5,354 nucleotides of DNA from a virus (lineage: Duplodnaviria; Heunggongvirae; Uroviricota; Caudoviricetes), in the IMG/VR virus record IMGVR_UViG_2740892006_000002. One strand, written 5' to 3'. Of this stretch, positions 1 through 5,354 are shown in pieces. A model generated the notes under the pieces. It was not told the DNA's origin. It searched no databases and worked only from the letters and a program-made list of their open reading frames with translations. Both the position numbers and the translations under genes were made by a program. Position 1 is the first letter of the stretch. Each line of letters begins with the position of its first letter.

Positions 1-807
1 ATGGGTTCATGTGCAGCTCCATCAGCAAAAAGGGATGATAAGTTTATCACCACCGACTATTTGCAACAGTGCCCGTTTGCCTTAGGGAAAACAGGAAGCA
101 CCGTTGCGAATGATAAAGCAGTTGGATGGAACTGGAGTAGCGGAGCCTATAACGCAACTATTAGTGGTGCATCAACGTTAATTATTCATTTTTATATGGG
201 AGAAGGAAGTTGTCCTGCAGCTCAGTTTCGGATTAATTATAAAAATGGCGGTATTTTTTATCGTTCAGCCCGTGATGGTTATGGTTTTGAAGCCGACTGG
301 TCCGAATTTTACACCACCACCAGAAAACCTTCAGCAGGAGATGTTGGTGCACTGCCGTTATCTGGTGGTCAACTGAATGGTGCACTGGGTATCGGAACAT
401 CCAGTGCTCTTGGCGGTAATTCGATTGTATTGGGTGATAATGACACGGGCTTTAAACAAAATGGCGATGGTAATCTGGATGTTTATGCTAATAACGTCCA
501 TGTTATGCGCTTTGTCTCCGGAAGCATTCAAAGTAATAAAACCATAAATATTACAGGGCGTGTTAACCCCTCGGATTACGGTAACTTTGATTCCCGTTAT
601 GTGAAAGATGTTCGACTTGGTTCACAGCAATATTATGGAGTGAACAACTGGCGAACATGGAATTTCCAGTGCCCTTCAGGTCATGTATTGTCTGGTATTA
701 ATGTTCAGGATACAGGGTCTAACTCTGCCGATAATATAGCGGGTGTTTATTACAGACCCGTTCAAAAGTATATAAATGGCACCTGGTATAATGTAGCGAG
801 CGTTTAA
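1..807 (+). CDS. Phage tail fiber protein, C-terminal variable portion (5'-partial; ORF open to the window edge)
   Basis: Frame is open from position 1 to TAA at 805-807. Gly/Asn/Ser-rich composition typical of fiber tips. Shares the motif ALGGNSI(V/T)LGDNDTG(F/I)KQxGDG and the C-terminal tip motif QKYI(N/S)G(T/N)WYNV with the minus-strand fiber ORF. Its stop overlaps the start of the downstream tfa (TAAtATG), as in stf-tfa operons. Confidence 0.85.
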
Positions 808-808
808 T

Positions 809-1342
809 ATGATGCACTTAAAGAACATAAAAGCGGGTAATGCTAAAACACTGGAACAGTATGAGTTAACAAAGAAACACGGAGTTATCTGGCTTTACTC
901 TGAGGACGGAAAAAACTGGTATGAGGAAGTGAAAAACTTTCAGCCAGACACCATAAAGATTGTTTACGATGAAAATAATATTATTGTTGCCATAACCAAA
1001 GATGCCTCCACACTTAACCCTGAAGGTTATAGCGTCGTTGAGATTCCTGATATTACCGCCAACCGGCGTGCTGACGACTCAGGTAAATGGATGTTTAAAG
1101 ATGGCGCAGTCATTAAACGTGTATATACCGAAGAAGAGTTGCGCCTACAGACGGAAAACCAGAAAAAAATATTATTACAGCAGGCCAGAGAAAAAACGCA
1201 GTTCTGGCAAACACAGCTTACTTTGGGGATTATCACTGATTCAGACAGACAGCAACTGATGAACTGGATGCGATACGTGCAACAGGTTGAGACAACTGAT
1301 ACCTCGGTTCTTCCTGTAACATTCCCGGAACCACCAGAATAA
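809..1342 (+). CDS. tfa: Tail fiber assembly protein (Tfa family chaperone)
   Basis: 177 aa starting [11 protein letters not shown]...[23 protein letters not shown]...ITANRRAD, which is the conserved N-terminal half of enterobacterial Tfa proteins. Start codon lies 1 nt after the fiber stop. The N-terminal ~95 residues are highly similar to the minus-strand paralog at 1373-1900, and the C-terminus diverges. Confidence 0.9.
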
Positions 1343-1343
1343 G

Positions 1344-1368
1344 AAAAGGCCCGTACGGGCCTTAATTT
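1344..1368. terminator. Candidate bidirectional hairpin between the convergent tfa genes
   Basis: AAGGCCC-GTAC-GGGCCTT (7-bp GC-rich stem 1346-1352 / 1357-1363, 4-nt loop) lies between the tfa stop (1340-1342) and the tfa' stop (1373-1375). Flanking T/A runs are short, so efficiency is uncertain. Confidence 0.45.
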
Positions 1369-1372
1369 GTTG

Positions 1373-1900
1373 TTATTCTGGTTTCTGTGGCCATTCAGGC
1401 TTTGCAGTATCCACATGGCTGACCATAACGCTGTAGCGTTCCCATGATTCCAGTCGTGTGCGTTCCTCATCAGTTGCCATATTCAGTCTGACAGCACGTT
1501 CCAGCGGTTGAATCACAGACTCCGCTTCGGAAAGCAAAGCGGCTTTTTGTAACTCTGCCTGCTGTTGCAGTTCCTGTTTTGTATATTCCCGCTTTACTAC
1601 TTTACCATCCAGAAACTTCCAGTTTCCCGAGATATCGGCGCGACGGTTGGCTGTTATATTCGGTAACTCAACAACACTTAACCCGTCAGGGTTAAGTGTT
1701 GATACGTCTTTCTCAATACAACGAATAATCCCCTTCTGGTCATAAGCTATTTTTAAAGTATCATCCTGAAAGTTTTTTAATTCGTCATACCAGTTTTTAC
1801 CGTCTTCTGTATATAGCCAGATAACGCCAGCTTTTTTCGTAAGCTGATACTGCTCAATGGTTTTGGGGTTTCCGGCGGTAATATTTTTCAGATGTTGCAT
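1373..1900 (-). CDS. tfa: Tail fiber assembly protein, alternative cassette (Tfa')
   Basis: 175 aa starting [36 protein letters not shown]...ITANRRAD. An AGGAGA Shine-Dalgarno sits about 7 nt upstream of the ATG (reverse complement of 1904-1909). The C-terminal tail ...[15 protein letters not shown]...PEWP resembles the lambda-Tfa-type C-terminus seen again at 4116-4385. Confidence 0.9.
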
Positions 1901-1915
1901 ATATTCTCCTGATGG

Positions 1916-2884
1916 CTATGCCTGTTCAACGTTATACCAGTTACCAGAAATGTATTTTTGTAGTGGTCGTGACACCATCCAGTCATCTCCATCAACCTCA
2001 CCAATAATTTGCAATCCTGTTGTCACATGACCATTACCTGGTTCGCAAAGTCCTCCGCGATATAATGTGTCAGAACGTCTGCCTCCCAGACGCACATTTC
2101 TGATAAAAGAACTATTCAGGTAATCATTTAAGTTTGACCCCCAGCACCCACCAAATATATTTCCATCGGTGTTATAACGGACGCCACCCGCAATAAGAGC
2201 ACCCGGTGAAATAAAGGATTTATCGTTCGGGTTAAACTGCCATAAAGCATCATTACCGCCATCGCCACGCATATGAATACATGGAACCGGAAATCCATAC
2301 TGTTCTGTCAGTAAATACCCAAAGCTGACCGCGCCGGGATAGCCCTGTCCATTGCGAATGGACAAGCCCTTAACTATCGGCACGTAAAGACCACCAGGAG
2401 TGGGATTCCAGGCAAACTGCGTCTGAACAAAAGGCGCGGTGGCATTATTCAACTGGTCTGCAAATGCGCCACTTCCATCAGGAATTATTCCCTGATGAAT
2501 ATATGCAACCCGCTTATAAAAATCAGCAGATGCGGGTTGAAGCCCAAATGCCAGTTGTCCATTTGAATAGAATAAAAGGACACCGTCGCCGCCCTGTTTA
2601 ATACCAGTGTCGTTATCTCCGAGAGTAATGGAATTACCGCCCAGTGCGTTATCTGTACCAAGCGCCAGCCCACCATCAATTTTGGCCCCGTGGCTGACAG
2701 ATATAGCACCTGTTCTCAGATTTATAGCGAATGGCCTTAATGGGCCGATATCACCGTTTTCGCCTTGTCCTTCAGCCGTCGGAATGAAATGAAGAAAATC
2801 TTCTGAACGACGGAAAATAAGACCGAAGGCATCATTGAAAATTCGCAGCGCATTCACCGTGCCAATTTTCAGTTCTCCGGTCAT
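1916..2884 (-). CDS. Alternative tail fiber variable segment (Sv'-like cassette); frame stays open upstream to about 2947 through the crossover site
   Basis: 322-aa ORF with the same glycine-rich motif (ALGGNSITLGDNDTGIKQGGDG) and C-terminal QKYISGNWYNV tip as the + strand fiber. It is followed 16 nt downstream by tfa' with its own SD. My translation upstream of the first ATG stays in frame (…NLGLQETVNKAGNAVQRSGDK-MTGELKIG) across 2930-2955, as expected for a promoterless cassette that becomes fused to a constant fiber part after inversion. Confidence 0.85.
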   Translation of the reverse strand: MTGELKIGTVNALRIFNDAFGLIFRRSEDFLHFIPTAEGQGENGDIGPLRPFAINLRTGAISVSHGAKIDGGLALGTDNALGGNSITLGDNDTGIKQGGDGVLLFYSNGQLAFGLQPASADFYKRVAYIHQGIIPDGSGAFADQLNNATAPFVQTQFAWNPTPGGLYVPIVKGLSIRNGQGYPGAVSFGYLLTEQYGFPVPCIHMRGDGGNDALWQFNPNDKSFISPGALIAGGVRYNTDGNIFGGCWGSNLNDYLNSSFIRNVRLGGRRSDTLYRGGLCEPGNGHVTTGLQIIGEVDGDDWMVSRPLQKYISGNWYNVEQA

Positions 2885-2929
2885 TTTATCGCCGGAACGC
2901 TGAACGGCGTTACCAGCCTTGTTTACCGT

Positions 2930-2955
2930 TTCCTGTAAACCGAGGTTTTAGATAA
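2930..2955. other. Gin/Pin/Cin/Hin-type inversion crossover site (pix/gix-like), right end of the invertible segment
   Basis: TTCCTGTAAACC-GA-GGTTTTAGATAA: 26 bp made of two imperfect 12-bp inverted half-sites around a central GA, closely matching the recalled gix/cix/pix consensus. It lies between the 5' end of the silent fiber cassette and the invertase start (3010), which is the canonical position. Confidence 0.7.
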
Positions 2956-3009
2956 TGGCGGTTTCTGGCCTGCATGGCATGATTTGTGCTTTTGGACGGG
3001 AGATTCAGC

Positions 3010-3252
3010 GTGCTGATTGGCTATGTAAGGGTATCAACAAATGACCAGAATACAGATCTGCAACGAAACGCTCTTGTTTGTGCAGGATATGAACAAATAT
3101 TTGAAGATAAATTAAGCGGAACAAGGACAGGCCGACCTGGATTAAAACGTGCTTTAAAGCGCCTTCAAAAAGGTGACGCACTGGTTGTCTGAAAACTGGA
3201 CTGACTGGTTCACTGTATGCGGCATCTTGTCGTGCTGGTGGTGGAAGCCTAG
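3010..3252 (+). pseudogene. pin: Serine DNA invertase (Pin/Gin/Hin family), truncated and decayed
   Basis: GTG start at 3010 with GGGAGA SD 6 nt upstream. The first 60 codons (VLIGYVRVSTNDQNTDLQRNALVCAGYEQIFEDKLSGTRTGRPGLKRALKRLQKGDALVV) match the invertase N-terminus, including the catalytic Ser in YVRVSTNDQ. TGA at 3190-3192 replaces the expected Trp of VVWKLDRLGRS, followed by in-frame stops at 3202-3204 and 3250-3252 and several substitutions (*KLD*LVHCMRHLVVLVVEA*). The whole C-terminal catalytic/HTH portion is missing; the frame runs into a tfa 3' end. Confidence 0.85.
3025..3100. promoter_or_regulatory. Candidate Fis-dependent recombinational enhancer retained inside the invertase 5' remnant
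   Basis: In Hin/Gin/Cin systems the enhancer lies within the first ~100 bp of the invertase coding sequence with two Fis sites roughly 48 bp apart. Two G-N13-C 15-mers with AT-rich centres occur here at 3031-3045 (GTATCAACAAATGAC) and 3080-3094 (GTGCAGGATATGAAC), centres 49 bp apart. Assigned by eye only. Confidence 0.3.
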
Positions 3253-3385
3253 AAAAAGTATCGGGTGTTACTGAACCGTGTTGATACATCAACTGCACCT
3301 GATATTGAGTGGCCTACGAACCCTGTCAGGGAGTAATCATTGGGATTATGCCGCAGCACGTCTTAAGCAAGAACGTGCTGCGGTT
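3244..3385 (+). repeat. Direct repeat copy A (tfa 3' end plus hairpin), fused in frame to the invertase remnant
   Basis: About 140 bp, roughly 90% identical to 4293-4436 at a constant 1049-bp offset. Encodes [29 protein letters not shown] (stop 3334-3336), then a perfect 11-bp-stem hairpin CCGCAGCACGT-(11 nt)-ACGTGCTGCGG at 3351-3383. Confidence 0.8.
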
Positions 3386-3399
3386 GGATGCTATTTTTT
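3351..3399 (+). terminator. Hairpin plus T-run downstream of the tfa-like 3' end (candidate intrinsic terminator)
   Basis: Perfect 11-bp stem at 3351-3361 / 3373-3383, then TTTTTT at 3394-3399. The T-run is about 10 nt from the stem and also encodes the last Lys codons of the minus-strand methyltransferase, so terminator function is uncertain. Confidence 0.3.
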
Positions 3400-4059
3400 C
3401 CCTGAAGCGGAAAACATTACTACAGTACCTTGAACCTTGGTTTTAACATTCTCGAAATGCTCTGAGAGTATATGTGTTAAGCCTTCTTCGGAATCTTTTG
3501 TGTTTGAAAAGATGCCTTTCTGATTGTAAATGCGCATCAGTTTTTGACCGAAGCTATTGTGCACAACGCCGTCACCAAGAATTGTGGCTCCGTATAGAGT
3601 TCCATCGTCAGTTAAGGCCTGCGCCGCATTGCGTATTACACAGCTTTTTGTAGATATATTTCCAGGCAGGCAGTGAAGAAGGTAAAACATGGAAATGGAA
3701 TCAAATTGACCATGTAACGCCGCGGGATAAGGTTCAAAAACATCATGGCTAATTTTATGTTTAATTTTTGATTCCCCAGCCCTTGTAGATGCCGCGTTCA
3801 GGCTAGCTTCGTTCAAATCCATTAAAGATATCAGACTACTCTCAGGTACGTGAGTAAGGTAAAACCCAGTTCCAACACCAATATCCAGATGGTTGTTACC
3901 TACATGTTCCAGAAAGTGTGGAAGAAGGTGTTCCTTTGTAGGACATCCCCATGCAAGCCGATTTGATACTCCCAAAACCCACCAGTCATAAAGCTTTAGG
4001 GTAAGTGGTGTGTAAATTTTAGCCCCATCATCTGTGTTTTTTTTCATTGATTTCACCAT
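3391..4059 (-). CDS. Class I SAM-dependent methyltransferase (prophage moron)
   Basis: 222-aa ORF with a Rossmann-fold motif I, HLDIGVGTGFY, followed by an acidic residue after the next strand (LISLMDLNE) and a later FDSISMFYLLHCLP segment. No DPPY/NPPY-type amino-MTase motif. An alternative start at the second ATG (4047-4045; MKKNTDD...) is preceded by a GGTGA SD-like sequence. Confidence 0.85.
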   Translation of the reverse strand: MVKSMKKNTDDGAKIYTPLTLKLYDWWVLGVSNRLAWGCPTKEHLLPHFLEHVGNNHLDIGVGTGFYLTHVPESSLISLMDLNEASLNAASTRAGESKIKHKISHDVFEPYPAALHGQFDSISMFYLLHCLPGNISTKSCVIRNAAQALTDDGTLYGATILGDGVVHNSFGQKLMRIYNQKGIFSNTKDSEEGLTHILSEHFENVKTKVQGTVVMFSASGKK

Positions 4060-4088
4060 GTTATAGTTTTATTTGTGAATTAAATCAA
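4060..4088 (-). promoter_or_regulatory. Candidate sigma70 promoter for the methyltransferase
   Basis: On the minus strand: TTGATT (4088-4083), a 17-nt spacer, then TATAAC (4065-4060). The -10 abuts the first ATG (4059-4057), which would imply transcription starting at or after that codon and translation from the second ATG. Judged by eye, weak. Confidence 0.25.
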
Positions 4089-4115
4089 TTATGGCGATGA
4101 ATTACAAGGGGTTAA

Positions 4116-4385
4116 ATGCTGCCGCAGCATAGCGATATTGAAATAGCCTGGTATGCTTCGATACAGCAGGAGCCGAATGGCTGGAAGACCGTCACCACAC
4201 AGTTCTACATCCAGGAATTCAGTGAGTATATTGCGCCACTGCAGGATGCTGTAGATCTGGAAATCGCAACGGAGGAAGAAAGATCGTTGCTGGAGGCATG
4301 GAATAAATATCGGGTATTGTTGAATCGTGTTGATACATCAACTGCACCTGATATTGAGTGGCCTGCAAATCCTGTCAGGGAGTAA
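4116..4385 (+). pseudogene. tfa: Tail fiber assembly protein, C-terminal fragment (lambda Tfa-like), N-terminal half missing
   Basis: The 89-aa ORF ends ...[54 protein letters not shown], closely resembling the C-terminus of lambda Tfa as I recall it. There is no conserved Tfa N-terminal region; an AAGGGG SD sits about 5 nt upstream of the ATG at 4116. The 3' part is repeat copy B. Confidence 0.7.
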
Positions 4386-4436
4386 TCATTGGGATTATGC
4401 CGCAGACACGTCGTATGCAGGAACGTGCTGCGGTTA
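4293..4436 (+). repeat. Direct repeat copy B (tfa 3' end plus hairpin)
   Basis: Matches 3244-3385 at a +1049 offset (+1050 after a 1-nt insertion in the hairpin arm). The W codon TGG at 4299-4301 corresponds to TAG at 3250-3252 in copy A. The hairpin here is imperfect (CCGCAGACACGT...ACGTGCTGCGG). Confidence 0.8.
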
Positions 4437-4499
4437 GTTTGTGAGCTTTCGATAGTGGTTGTTATTTTTGCCCTTATTTGTTCCGGAGGCCATGGTTCA

Positions 4500-4670
4500 A
4501 TGGTCCGTCTGCCCCCTGTGGTGATGTCAGCAAAATCAGCCACTGCGCGAACCACAATAGCCCGGGAAGATGCTGAAGATCACCAGGTAAAGCTGTCAGC
4601 GCAGAAACTGGAAGAACTGCTCGCATCAATGGTTAAGGATGAGGTTGATCGCAATGATGGGATTTATTGA
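4500..4670 (+). CDS. Hypothetical small protein (56 aa); uncertain
   Basis: In-frame ATG at 4500 with GGAGG (4485-4489) about 10 nt upstream, giving MVRLPPVVMSAKSATARTTIAREDAEDHQVKLSAQKLEELLASMVKDEVDRNDGIY. The ORF-track start at 4389 lies inside repeat B and is unlikely. No family recognised. Confidence 0.25.
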   Translation: MVRLPPVVMSAKSATARTTIAREDAEDHQVKLSAQKLEELLASMVKDEVDRNDGIY

Positions 4671-4765
4671 CGTCAGCGAGAGCAGAAGGAAGAACTGAAT
4701 AACCTGAATGATTTACGCTCAATCAGAGCGATGGCGATTAGCGGCAATCACGCTCGATAAAATTA

Positions 4766-4796: not shown

Positions 4797-5354
4797 TTAA
4801 AACCGCATCAACCTTTCCACCAATTGTTCTTTACGGGCAACGATCCACCCATGTTGCTCCAGATAAAATTTAAACCGTTCCAGCGTGCATACCATCGCAT
4901 CGGCGGGGACTTTTTCTGTGAACTCGACCTGACCGTGTTTATCGAAGTGGATCAGTAATGCGCATCCATTATTTGGGGCGGGGGAGTTTTGTGCTGCAGG
5001 AGGACGTTTGTGGAGTTCTTCTTCCATTGCGTTAAATTTTTCAATGTAAGCTTCTTTTAGTCTGGCTGCTTTTTTGCCAGTAAATCCCATTACGAGGAAC
5101 ATGAAGCCGTCTTTTGTGATCAGGTAGCATCGTGATTCACGTTCTGCGCCGTTGCCAATTTCGACAGTCTGAACATCGGCCGAAAAGTTGGCTGATGTAA
5201 ATTCGGGAGAGCAGTCGAGTGTGTCAATCTTAGCTAAAACGTGTTTATGTTGTTTATCGAAGTAGTCGGCAACAGCTTGAGAGGTGGTAACCAGGCGACC
5301 ATCTTTGAAAAAGACTTTTGGTGACTCGTTAGAAAAAGTTATAGCTGTATTCAT
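4797..5354 (-). CDS. Rha-family phage regulatory protein (antirepressor-like N-terminal domain) with an uncharacterised C-terminal domain
   Basis: 185 aa; the N-terminal region (...VTTSQAVADYFDKQHKHVLAKIDTLDCSPEF...YLITKDGFMFLVMGFTGKKAARLKEAYIEKFNAMEE) matches the pRha-domain pattern as I recall it. The start codon is at the window edge (5352-5354), so upstream signals cannot be seen. Confidence 0.7.
   Translation of the reverse strand: MNTAITFSNESPKVFFKDGRLVTTSQAVADYFDKQHKHVLAKIDTLDCSPEFTSANFSADVQTVEIGNGAERESRCYLITKDGFMFLVMGFTGKKAARLKEAYIEKFNAMEEELHKRPPAAQNSPAPNNGCALLIHFDKHGQVEFTEKVPADAMVCTLERFKFYLEQHGWIVARKEQLVERLMRF

Follow-up and report, generated by a model that had tools for sequence, protein, structure and literature searches.

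A methyltransferase gene within a partial tfa duplication at the right end of the ompW prophage of E. coli ST131: a probable moron moved by homologous recombination

How did a methyltransferase gene come to lie between two copies of the same tfa gene end, and do these copies allow prophages to gain and lose it? The question arises at the right end of the ompW prophage of E. coli ST131, contained in the stretch of DNA analysed here, the 5,354 nucleotides of the IMG/VR virus record IMGVR_UViG_2740892006_000002 (hereafter the window). The methyltransferase unit is oriented leftward and converges with the late (tail-fibre) operon of the lambdoid prophage at that operon's end. The features of the locus, in window positions, are as follows.

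2986-3246, plus strand: dead pin gene (serine invertase of the Din family), of which the N-terminal ~85 codons remain up to the tfa junction, interrupted by in-frame TGA at 3190-3192 and 3205-3207.
3239-3385, plus strand: repeat copy A, a tfa 3' remnant (~32 codons) followed by hairpin A (3351-3383).
3243-3247, no strand: illegitimate pin::tfa junction with ~4 nt of microhomology (TGGA), from a three-way alignment of the window, e14 pinE and an intact tfa.
3391-4059, minus strand: class I SAM-dependent methyltransferase, homologue of ybcY (Pfam Methyltransf_12, 23, 25 and 11).
4060-4115, minus strand: divergent AT-rich spacer of 56 nt (27% GC) with a candidate methyltransferase promoter, TTGATT (4088-4083), 17 nt, TATAAC (4065-4060).
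4116-4385, plus strand: 5'-truncated tfa fragment, an 89-codon ORF with an AAGGGG Shine-Dalgarno sequence; its last ~32 codons are the coding part of copy B.
4288-4435, plus strand: repeat copy B, a tfa 3' end (last ~32 codons) and hairpin B (4400-4433), with a bulged A at 4406.
4482-4760, plus strand: 'DUF4376, a tail-fibre-related gene fragment (PGAP; PHROG 1141 tail fibre, E 7e-10).

Self-alignment of the window pairs 3239-3385 with 4288-4435 as a direct repeat (147 and 148 nt, 148 columns, 88.5% identity), which BLAST returns as a single alignment of 178 bits (E 5.6e-47); in 100 dinucleotide shuffles of the window the best off-diagonal score was 24.3 +/- 2.2 bits, with a maximum of 34.4. 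The repeat consists of a block of 118 nt (3239-3356 and 4288-4405, 89%) spaced by 1049 nt and a block of 29 nt (3357-3385 and 4407-4435, 90%) spaced by 1050; the change in spacing comes from a 1-nt indel, as the left arm of hairpin B has one A more. The longest runs of perfect identity between the copies are 39 and 35 bp. Both copies align with the 3' end of lambda tfa, and the ORF that runs into copy B matches Pfam PF02413 Caudo_TAP (positions 75-130 of 131, E 6e-25) and PHROG 2341 (1-88 of 88), such that the source of the repeat is the C-terminal region of a Tfa-type gene. A first-pass annotation made from the letters of this DNA had already described ~140-bp direct repeats at a 1049-bp offset, and its coordinates (3244-3385 and 4293-4436) fall within 5 nt of ours. 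It had also read each copy as the last ~30 codons of tfa plus a hairpin, which agrees with the ~32 codons and the hairpin with an 11-bp stem found in each, and had placed a minus-strand methyltransferase and the 5' part of the tfa fragment between the copies, as the Pfam matches confirm.

Copy A is cut short on its left. Its reading frame carries a TGG to TAG change at 3251-3253 and reaches a stop at 3334-3336; prophages at the DLP12 site and at ompW have intact tfa genes ahead of the methyltransferase, and copy A is ~99% identical to their 3' ends. Where the upstream tfa is intact, the repeat extends ~70 nt further left, to 216 nt in total. In the window, the pin fragment takes this place: it matches the Pfam Resolvase N-terminal domain (E 4.6e-15), is labelled 'recombinase family protein, incomplete' by PGAP and aligns with e14 pinE as far as GTGCTGGTGG. 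The left edge of copy A is a one-off illegitimate join of pin to tfa and no natural boundary of the repeat. The recombinase of another locus (L019) was discarded as comparator for the pin fragment, as it belongs to a different subfamily, and e14 pinE was used in its place.

Between the copies, the methyltransferase ORF comprises 222 codons; translation probably starts at Met5 (4047) to give a protein of 218 aa, and residues 5-222 match the PHROG 2132 profile from end to end (1-218 of 218). The ybcY<>tfaX spacer of K-12 is an RpoD-holoenzyme genomic-SELEX site with a listed ybcY promoter, marked as H-NS-bound (PMC3946193), and the TTGATT-17-TATAAC sequence of our spacer is the same as that promoter sequence. 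A simple promoter consensus scan returned only a 9/12 site, with a weaker alternative at 4115-4088. At the other end of the gene, the hairpin located 8 nt past the methyltransferase stop has a folding energy of -23 kcal/mol on the methyltransferase strand (z -5.1); hairpins A and B give -28.5 kcal/mol (z -5.1) and -24.1 kcal/mol (z -2.7), respectively. No adjacent T-run is present at either hairpin on either strand, and a terminator consensus scan picked out no more than a sub-stem of hairpin B and did not call the hairpin 3' of the methyltransferase. No part of the window, hairpins included, was assigned to an Rfam family at gathering thresholds. We infer that the hairpin could act as terminator of the methyltransferase unit.

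This structure is already annotated in E. coli K-12. The tfaD-ybcY-tfaX arrangement of prophage DLP12, which the first-pass annotation had named as similar, is present in NC_000913.3, and window positions 3239-4362 align with it at 96.8% over 1124 nt (98.5% in a 730-nt methyltransferase core). The hairpin, the promoter spacer and the truncation point of the tfa fragment are all identical in the two prophages. However, the left copy of DLP12 lies within a full-length tfaD, whereas that of the window is cut to 147 nt by the fusion to pin'; ybcY is a pseudogene in DLP12, whereas the methyltransferase of the window is intact; and the right fragment of DLP12 switches at ~4296 to a different tfa allele and lacks hairpin B, whereas the right copy of the window is complete. 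The chromosomal sites also differ, argU/ompT for DLP12 and ompW for the window prophage. Lambda offers a simpler counterpart, with a single copy and ea47 where the methyltransferase sits in the window. At its tfa/ea47 intergenic region (22558-22685), lambda has a tfa 3' end homologous to that of the window at 85% identity, and a homologous hairpin holds the same position between the rightward tfa and the leftward b-region gene ea47, differing from that of these prophages by one compensatory C:G to A:T change in the stem. The downstream flank of copy B resembles the sequence 3' of lambda's own tfa.

Whether the unit comes and goes was examined at ompW, with the 'DUF4376 fragment, part of the conserved attR-proximal end of these prophages, serving as right-hand flank. 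The methyltransferase, tfa fragment and 'DUF4376 occur together in ompW-prophage flanks in 817 records, whereas 20 genomes have stf-tfa-hairpin-'DUF4376 without the unit, in an uninterrupted 616-bp match. What is absent from these single-copy prophages is exactly one 1049-bp repeat period, with both flanks kept at 96-99.5% identity. The nine single-copy alleles examined follow, for the most part, copy A in their left portion and copy B in their right, and the final switch falls inside the repeat, at window-B positions 4325-4365 in eight and at 4370-4406 in the ninth (L028). These two intervals are the 39- and 35-bp runs of perfect identity, and the minimal homology for RecA-type exchange is ~25 bp; the alleles are thus chimeras joined within identity long enough for homologous recombination. 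Over 2.7 kb of left flank, L028 is 99.5% identical to the cassette-bearing L024, whose own copy A is chimeric at the same intervals, and in some viral contigs C-terminal codons of B-type occur together with hairpin A and the methyltransferase. The 20 genomes without the unit encode at least 8 different Tfa proteins, and the alleles examined show patchy A/B mosaicism upstream of 4365, on account of which they may be ancestral 'empty' sites instead of deletion products.

In this respect the first-pass annotation anticipated the outcome, as it had proposed to compare syntenic prophages with and without the 1049-bp unit for junctions inside the repeat; we saw neither a methyltransferase always present between unrelated flanks nor a lack of cargo polymorphism, which it had named as evidence against its reading. 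It had also proposed to look for the single-repeat deletion product in reads or PCR products; in genome sequences, the ST131 form of this product, pin' followed by one repeat and the right flank, was found in none of 5426, including ~420 of ST131 type, which indicates that turnover is slow at 88.5% identity. In the literature on ybcY, tfaX, morons and tail-fibre assembly, we found no description of this polymorphism, the yield being the K-12 promoter listing and passing mentions of context.

Could the two copies be passive debris instead, that is, two tfa genes that decayed independently after successive prophage fusions and deletions, with a repeat that plays no role in cargo turnover and single-copy prophages that represent an older lineage which never had the methyltransferase? 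Indeed, this prophage end is littered with gene pieces (pin', tfa', 'tfa and 'DUF4376), the pin::tfa boundary is clearly illegitimate, other loci often show IS insertions and truncations, and the ST131 context has yielded no deletion product. The single-copy alleles are also diverse. We nevertheless consider this explanation unlikely, since independent decay does not account for a missing unit of exactly one repeat period between well-conserved flanks, for switch points that coincide with the longest identity runs, or for the chimeric copy-A alleles of some cassette-bearing prophages (L024 and viral contigs).

The comparison of E. coli, E. albertii and Shigella loci with phage records adds a further element. 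The junctions of hairpin A with the methyltransferase 3' end and of the methyltransferase 5' end with the tfa fragment are the same wherever both are retained, whereas the outer flanks differ; the 5' truncation point of the tfa fragment, in particular, is identical at every locus that keeps this part. Since the inner junctions are identical, the sequences point to one founding event and later spread via flanking homology, and the methyltransferase is not a free cassette. The module is carried by bona fide phages, among them PhiR26_1, 2G7b and ev243.

The tfa end itself precedes more than this gene. A 35-nt tfa core was found in 63 instances in viral contigs, 34 in the methyltransferase context and 29 in others; clustering of 27 of these 29 gave 16 groups, thus at least 16 other contexts, including RVT_1, TIR, integrase and DUF2971 genes. 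E. coli loci also show other cargo between tfa and the hairpin-methyltransferase segment. The earlier suggestion that the tfa 3' end plus hairpin is an exchange point through which cargo is gained and lost gains support from this diversity and from the polymorphism of the unit. A stronger version, in which selection has made the tfa 3' core and hairpin a 'docking' signal that channels cargo exchange where the lambdoid late operon ends, for example through a structure-induced break or a site preferred by Red, strikes us as improbable. If true, it would define a hotspot for lambdoid accessory genes comparable to the hotspots of P2/P4-type elements, with exchange covering the methyltransferase and defence genes (reverse transcriptases, TIR proteins). 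The clustering of junctions may partly reflect selection for an intact tfa rather than a higher local rate of recombination.

We therefore favour, as quite probable, the reading of the unit as a moron, a self-contained transcription unit (candidate sigma-70 promoter, methyltransferase and terminator-like hairpin), held in a partial tfa duplication and moved by homologous recombination. Morons, as reportedly described by Juhala, Hendrix and colleagues, are promoter-gene-terminator units inserted between conserved genes of lambdoid phages, with cargo loci 3' of tail-fibre genes among them. The window unit would resemble them in its candidate promoter and 3' hairpin, and does so in its lower GC content (41.3% in the methyltransferase and 26.8% in the spacer, against 44-49% in the flanks and 47-49% in the flanking tfa pieces), although the contrast in base composition is modest. 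Like a moron, it distinguishes prophages that are otherwise syntenic, 817 records having it and 20 genomes lacking it, and its place at the late-operon end is one that many other cargos share. Unlike the usual morons, it is bracketed by a partial duplication of a neighbouring structural gene, which records the route of insertion and supplies the homology for its precise loss or gain; its product is a putative methyltransferase, compared with the known lysogenic-conversion factors of other morons. The structure fits the textbook model of morons and mosaicism.

We infer that events took the following course. The methyltransferase would first have stood just 3' of tfa in a donor phage, where lambda has ea47, and would have shared the intergenic hairpin. 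One illegitimate recombination would then have fused the promoter side of the gene to a second tfa in its middle, giving tfa-hairpinA-methyltransferase-'tfa-hairpinB. From there, RecA- or Red-type homologous recombination within the near-invariant tfa 3' segment and hairpin may have carried the unit from one lambdoid prophage to another, at argU/ompT (DLP12), ompW, potB and elsewhere; such homology would also permit unequal crossing-over or intramolecular deletion, adding or removing exactly one 1049-bp period. In the ST131 lineage, a microhomology-mediated deletion presumably fused pin to codon ~-32 of the upstream tfa and left the 147-nt copy A. The interest of the locus is modest: it is a clean and countable case of lambdoid prophages gaining and shedding accessory genes, in which one illegitimate join would create a moron flanked by a partial gene duplication that ordinary homologous recombination can spread and remove.

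A different account of the constant linkage is that the tfa fragment ORF (88/89 aa) is a functional partner of the methyltransferase, such as a truncated chaperone that interferes with the tail-fibre assembly of competing phages. Its ORF is intact, with the AAGGGG sequence in front, it makes up a PHROG family by itself (2341), the listing for the RpoD SELEX site of the K-12 spacer includes a predicted tfaX promoter (PMC3946193), and it is linked to the methyltransferase at all sampled sites but one. Its 3' end, however, is variably truncated or replaced: in K-12 tfaX, at ~4340 in L017-L019, and at ~4146 in strain 83972 (L025), where the methyltransferase is intact despite the cut. PGAP treats the ORF as a pseudogene fragment, and there are too few substitutions in the fragment for a dN/dS test of selection. 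We hold such a function to be very unlikely.

The locus looks superficially like an integron cassette, as a single ORF is paired with an imperfect hairpin that has a bulged base, and the cargo varies while its position stays the same. The related idea of the hairpin as a dedicated recombination site for a site- or structure-specific enzyme (like an integron attC, or like a docking site), making methyltransferase and hairpin a true mobile cassette, can draw on the presence of hairpin A with the methyltransferase in 33 of the 34 viral-contig instances, on the homology of L004, L017 and L019 to the window, which starts only at the hairpin or inside it, the DNA further left being unrelated, and on the stem pairing kept with lambda by compensatory change. 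It is nonetheless the least credible of the explanations: no integrase or recombinase is linked to the module, the only one nearby being the dead invertase-class pin; inspection revealed no attC-like R''/R' core pair around both hairpins; the other breakpoints lie in tfa coding sequence, at IS ends or at microhomology and not at one fixed position; the methyltransferase is always also linked to the truncated tfa on its other side, unlike a cassette; and any gene would be expected to stay closely linked to its terminator anyway. An integron/attC cassette proper was rejected, as the locus has no integron integrase or attI, the conserved core sites are lacking, and the junctions fall at several positions scattered over the homology.

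The gene carried and the company it keeps may prove more useful than the repeat: the methyltransferase is uncharacterised, 3836 of 5426 complete E. coli genomes (~71%) contain its core, with 4882 occurrences at 95% identity or above, and the same tfa end precedes many cargos, including genes that resemble defence genes. The protein matches only the generic small-molecule-type domains Methyltransf_11/12/23/25 and none of the DNA methyltransferase families (N6/N4/C5); NCBIfam matches were far below cut-off, the sole PADLOC hit had an E value of 0.009, which does not place it in a defence system, a PDB sequence search found no relative, and the PHROG comparison was no more informative on function. 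A role as DNA methyltransferase in restriction-modification or anti-restriction is not supported, as neither Pfam, NCBIfam nor PADLOC gave a match to such a family or defence model. Among eight alleles, pN/pS is ~0.1-0.3, showing signs of purifying selection. The gene is still intact in the prophage remnant of strain 83972, and its homologues in Enterobacter, with 61-64% amino-acid identity, occur without tfa flanks.

The chromosomes of E. coli O25b:H4-ST131 match the window at 100% identity, and in the JJ1886 annotation a lambdoid prophage inserted in ompW, beside the trp operon, has the window as its right-hand end. The locus is the ST131 copy of the widespread ybcY unit, a probable moron set within a partial duplication of tfa. 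Structures of this kind are ordinary and already annotated, and general homologous and illegitimate recombination accounts for how they work. The first-pass annotation had described a methyltransferase cassette between direct repeats and had read the tfa 3' end plus hairpin as a recombination hotspot; the observation holds, and the main points of the interpretation are supported. The window contains the following features.

Features of the window (window positions)
1-807, plus strand: side-tail-fibre C-terminus
809-1342, plus strand: tfa
1373-1900, minus strand: second tfa
1916-2884, minus strand: second fibre C-terminus
about 2930-2961: Din-type crossover site
2986 to about 3246: truncated pin invertase gene
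3239-3385: repeat copy A
3391-4059, minus strand: class I SAM-dependent methyltransferase
4060-4115: AT-rich spacer, 56 nt
4116-4385, plus strand: tfa fragment, 89 codons; its 3' end and the next hairpin form copy B
4288-4435: repeat copy B
4482-4760: 'DUF4376 fragment
4797-5354, minus strand: Rha-family gene

A Pin/Gin-type invertible tail-fibre segment lies for the most part within positions 1-2961. It carries two alternative fibre C-termini in opposite orientation, each paired with a tfa of its own, and is flanked by 32-nt inverted sites of 84% complementarity; the left site lies 126-157 nt ahead of the window start (8944-8975 of the JJ1886 locus, L001). The invertase gene is dead, carrying two in-frame TGA stops and a fusion to tfa, and the host-range switch is probably frozen, unless the invertase of another prophage acts in trans. 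In JJ1886, trpA directly follows the ompW remnant (L001 14912-15909) and yciE-yciF-yciG, located between ompW and trpA in other strains (L021 4275-6157), is missing beside the prophage, as it also is in strain EC15 (L034).

Copies A and B share 88.5% identity over 148 columns and score 178 bits in BLAST (E 6e-47), where 100 dinucleotide shuffles reached 34 bits at most, such that the direct repeat first noticed at a 1049-bp offset is real; the offset is 1049, then 1050 past a 1-nt indel within the hairpin. The proposed origin of both copies from a tfa 3' end with a downstream hairpin was also borne out. Copy B aligns with Pfam Caudo_TAP over the final 56 positions of the profile, copy A is that tfa segment with a TGG to TAG change, and an 11-bp-stem hairpin closes each copy (3351-3383 in A and 4400-4433 in B; folding energies of -28.5 and -24.1 kcal/mol, z-scores of -5.1 and -2.7, respectively). 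No T-run directly follows hairpin A or B, a consensus terminator scan called only a sub-stem of hairpin B and no full hairpin, and no Rfam family covers the hairpin. Lambda has a homologous hairpin, differing by one compensatory C:G to A:T stem change, within 22558-22685, the interval that separates its tfa stop (22557) from convergent ea47 (22686); the hairpin is thus an old feature of the late-operon end. The position taken here by the methyltransferase is held in lambda by ea47.

The likeness to the K-12 prophage DLP12, suggested in the first-pass annotation, was confirmed by its annotation as tfaD-ybcY-tfaX and by 96.8% nucleotide identity to window positions 3239-4362 (98.5% to the methyltransferase core). 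DLP12 differs in that ybcY is a pseudogene and, at about 4296 on the right side, another tfa allele takes over. A search of 5426 complete E. coli genomes for the 730-nt core gave 4882 occurrences in 3836 of them, every one at 95% identity or more, and the core is also present in E. albertii, Shigella and sequenced temperate phages that include PhiR26_1, 2G7b and ev243.

Both inner junctions, one where hairpin A meets the 3' end of the methyltransferase and the other where the spacer at the 5' end of that gene meets the truncated tfa, are the same in every inspected locus that keeps them, and this constancy points to one founding event. All sequence outside them varies. The left flank may be a full tfa (DLP12 site and ompW prophages), the dead pin gene in ST131, an IS3 element or, in Shigella, unrelated DNA abutting the hairpin. 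Extra cargo sits between tfa and hairpin in L019 (pin-ydfK-ynaM) and in O157:H7 (a catalase/ferritin-like/stress-protein block), and in both loci the left hairpin half is B-like, which places an exchange inside the hairpin loop. The O157:H7 block (L017, NZ_CP089272.1 3136055-3143784, locus 795-3008) comprises four genes annotated as Mn-catalase, two ferritin-like proteins and a general stress protein, resembles the host yciGFE(-katN) cluster flanking ompW, and may be captured host DNA or an inter-prophage rearrangement. On the right, a complete copy B is followed by 'DUF4376, or a different tfa allele takes over at about 4363 (L020), or the fragment is truncated at about 4340 (L017-L019) or about 4146 (L025, strain 83972).

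For the left edge of copy A, a three-way alignment of the window, e14 pinE and an intact tfa indicated that pin homology extends to GTGCTGGTGG and tfa homology begins at TGGAAGCC. Given the overlap of about 4 nt, this edge is a lineage-specific, microhomology-mediated illegitimate join. The repeat reaches 216 nt, at about 91% identity, in loci with an intact upstream tfa.

We then asked whether the cassette is polymorphic, as expected if it can be deleted through the repeats. A synthetic ST131-type single-repeat junction, the deletion product of this very locus, had no match in 5426 genomes. A generic junction query, made of the repeat with 200 nt of intact tfa before it and 200 nt from the right flank of copy B after it, gave a full-length, one-piece match in 20 genomes, and the methyltransferase, tfa fragment and 'DUF4376 occur together in 817 records; the unit is thus polymorphic among syntenic prophages, with junctions inside the repeat. 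The nine annotated genomes of the 20 read stf-tfa-hairpin-'DUF4376 without the methyltransferase; eight of these single-copy prophages are in ompW, two of which (L032 and L034) share the Rha and ash genes of the window, and the other (L031) lies beside uspF and ompN. At 85 columns that tell the two copies apart in cassette-bearing loci, the single-copy alleles score mainly as A-type towards the left and B-type towards the right, with the last switch at 4325-4365 in eight and at 4370-4406 in L028, intervals that are the two longest runs of perfect identity between the copies (39 and 35 bp). L028 is 99.5% identical to the cassette-bearing L024 across 2.7 kb of left flank, and chimeric copy-A alleles at the same intervals are present in some cassette-bearing loci (L024 and viral-contig variants). 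This is the pattern predicted by homologous exchange between the repeats, which would take the form of a deletion within one molecule or of unequal crossing-over between phage genomes. Some single-copy alleles may instead be ancestral empty sites, because they are diverse (at least eight Tfa proteins among nine) and partly mosaic.

The methyltransferase (METHYLTRANSFERASE) has generic class I domains of the small-molecule type and falls in PHROG 2132, a family of unknown function; comparisons with NCBIfam, PDB and PADLOC gave no useful match. Chromosomal homologues in Enterobacter, at 61-64% amino-acid identity, lack tfa flanks. The pN/pS of eight E. coli alleles is about 0.1-0.3, and in strain 83972 the gene is intact though the prophage is reduced to int'-'tfa-methyltransferase; that it outlasted nearly all of the prophage hints at selection for the gene. 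The remnant (L025, NZ_CP058220.1 3612253-3620399) is that of DLP12 and runs from argU through an int fragment, a tfa fragment and the intact methyltransferase to ompT. The spacer immediately upstream of the methyltransferase contains TTGATT-17-TATAAC, the same promoter listed for ybcY at a K-12 RpoD-holoenzyme genomic-SELEX site that is also marked as H-NS-bound (PMC3946193). Putative promoter, gene, hairpin and the lower GC accompanying the unit would together match the definition of a moron. An A-type hairpin precedes the methyltransferase in 33 of 34 instances among the IMG/VR matches listed, a linkage that fits the hairpin serving as the 3' end of the methyltransferase. RefSeq also lists a 45-aa hypothetical protein (WP_001309429.1, 3309-3446) that crosses hairpin A and runs into the 3' end of the methyltransferase, probably as an artefact of annotation. 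In the truncated tfa the 89-codon ORF is intact, has a strong Shine-Dalgarno sequence (AAGGGG, 5 nt before the ATG) and makes up a PHROG family of its own, 2341 (88 aa).

It is generally known that the lambdoid late operon ends in a cargo site. An IMG/VR scan for the exact 35-nt tfa core returned at least 80 loci; among the matches listed, at least 16 loci have two copies exactly 1049 nt apart, and 63 instances have at least 400 nt of downstream sequence, with the methyltransferase in 34 and another context in 29. Among these matches, 27 of the 29 were long enough to cluster and fell into at least 16 groups, therefore the tfa end is a general cargo site, as had been proposed. Genes for an RVT_1 reverse transcriptase, a TIR-domain protein, an integrase and a DUF2971 protein, and a Mn-catalase block, are among the groups, which suggests that the late-operon end also houses defence-like cargo. 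These five contexts lie within 1.3 kb downstream of the core in IMG/VR loci L107, L082, L039, L113 and L041.
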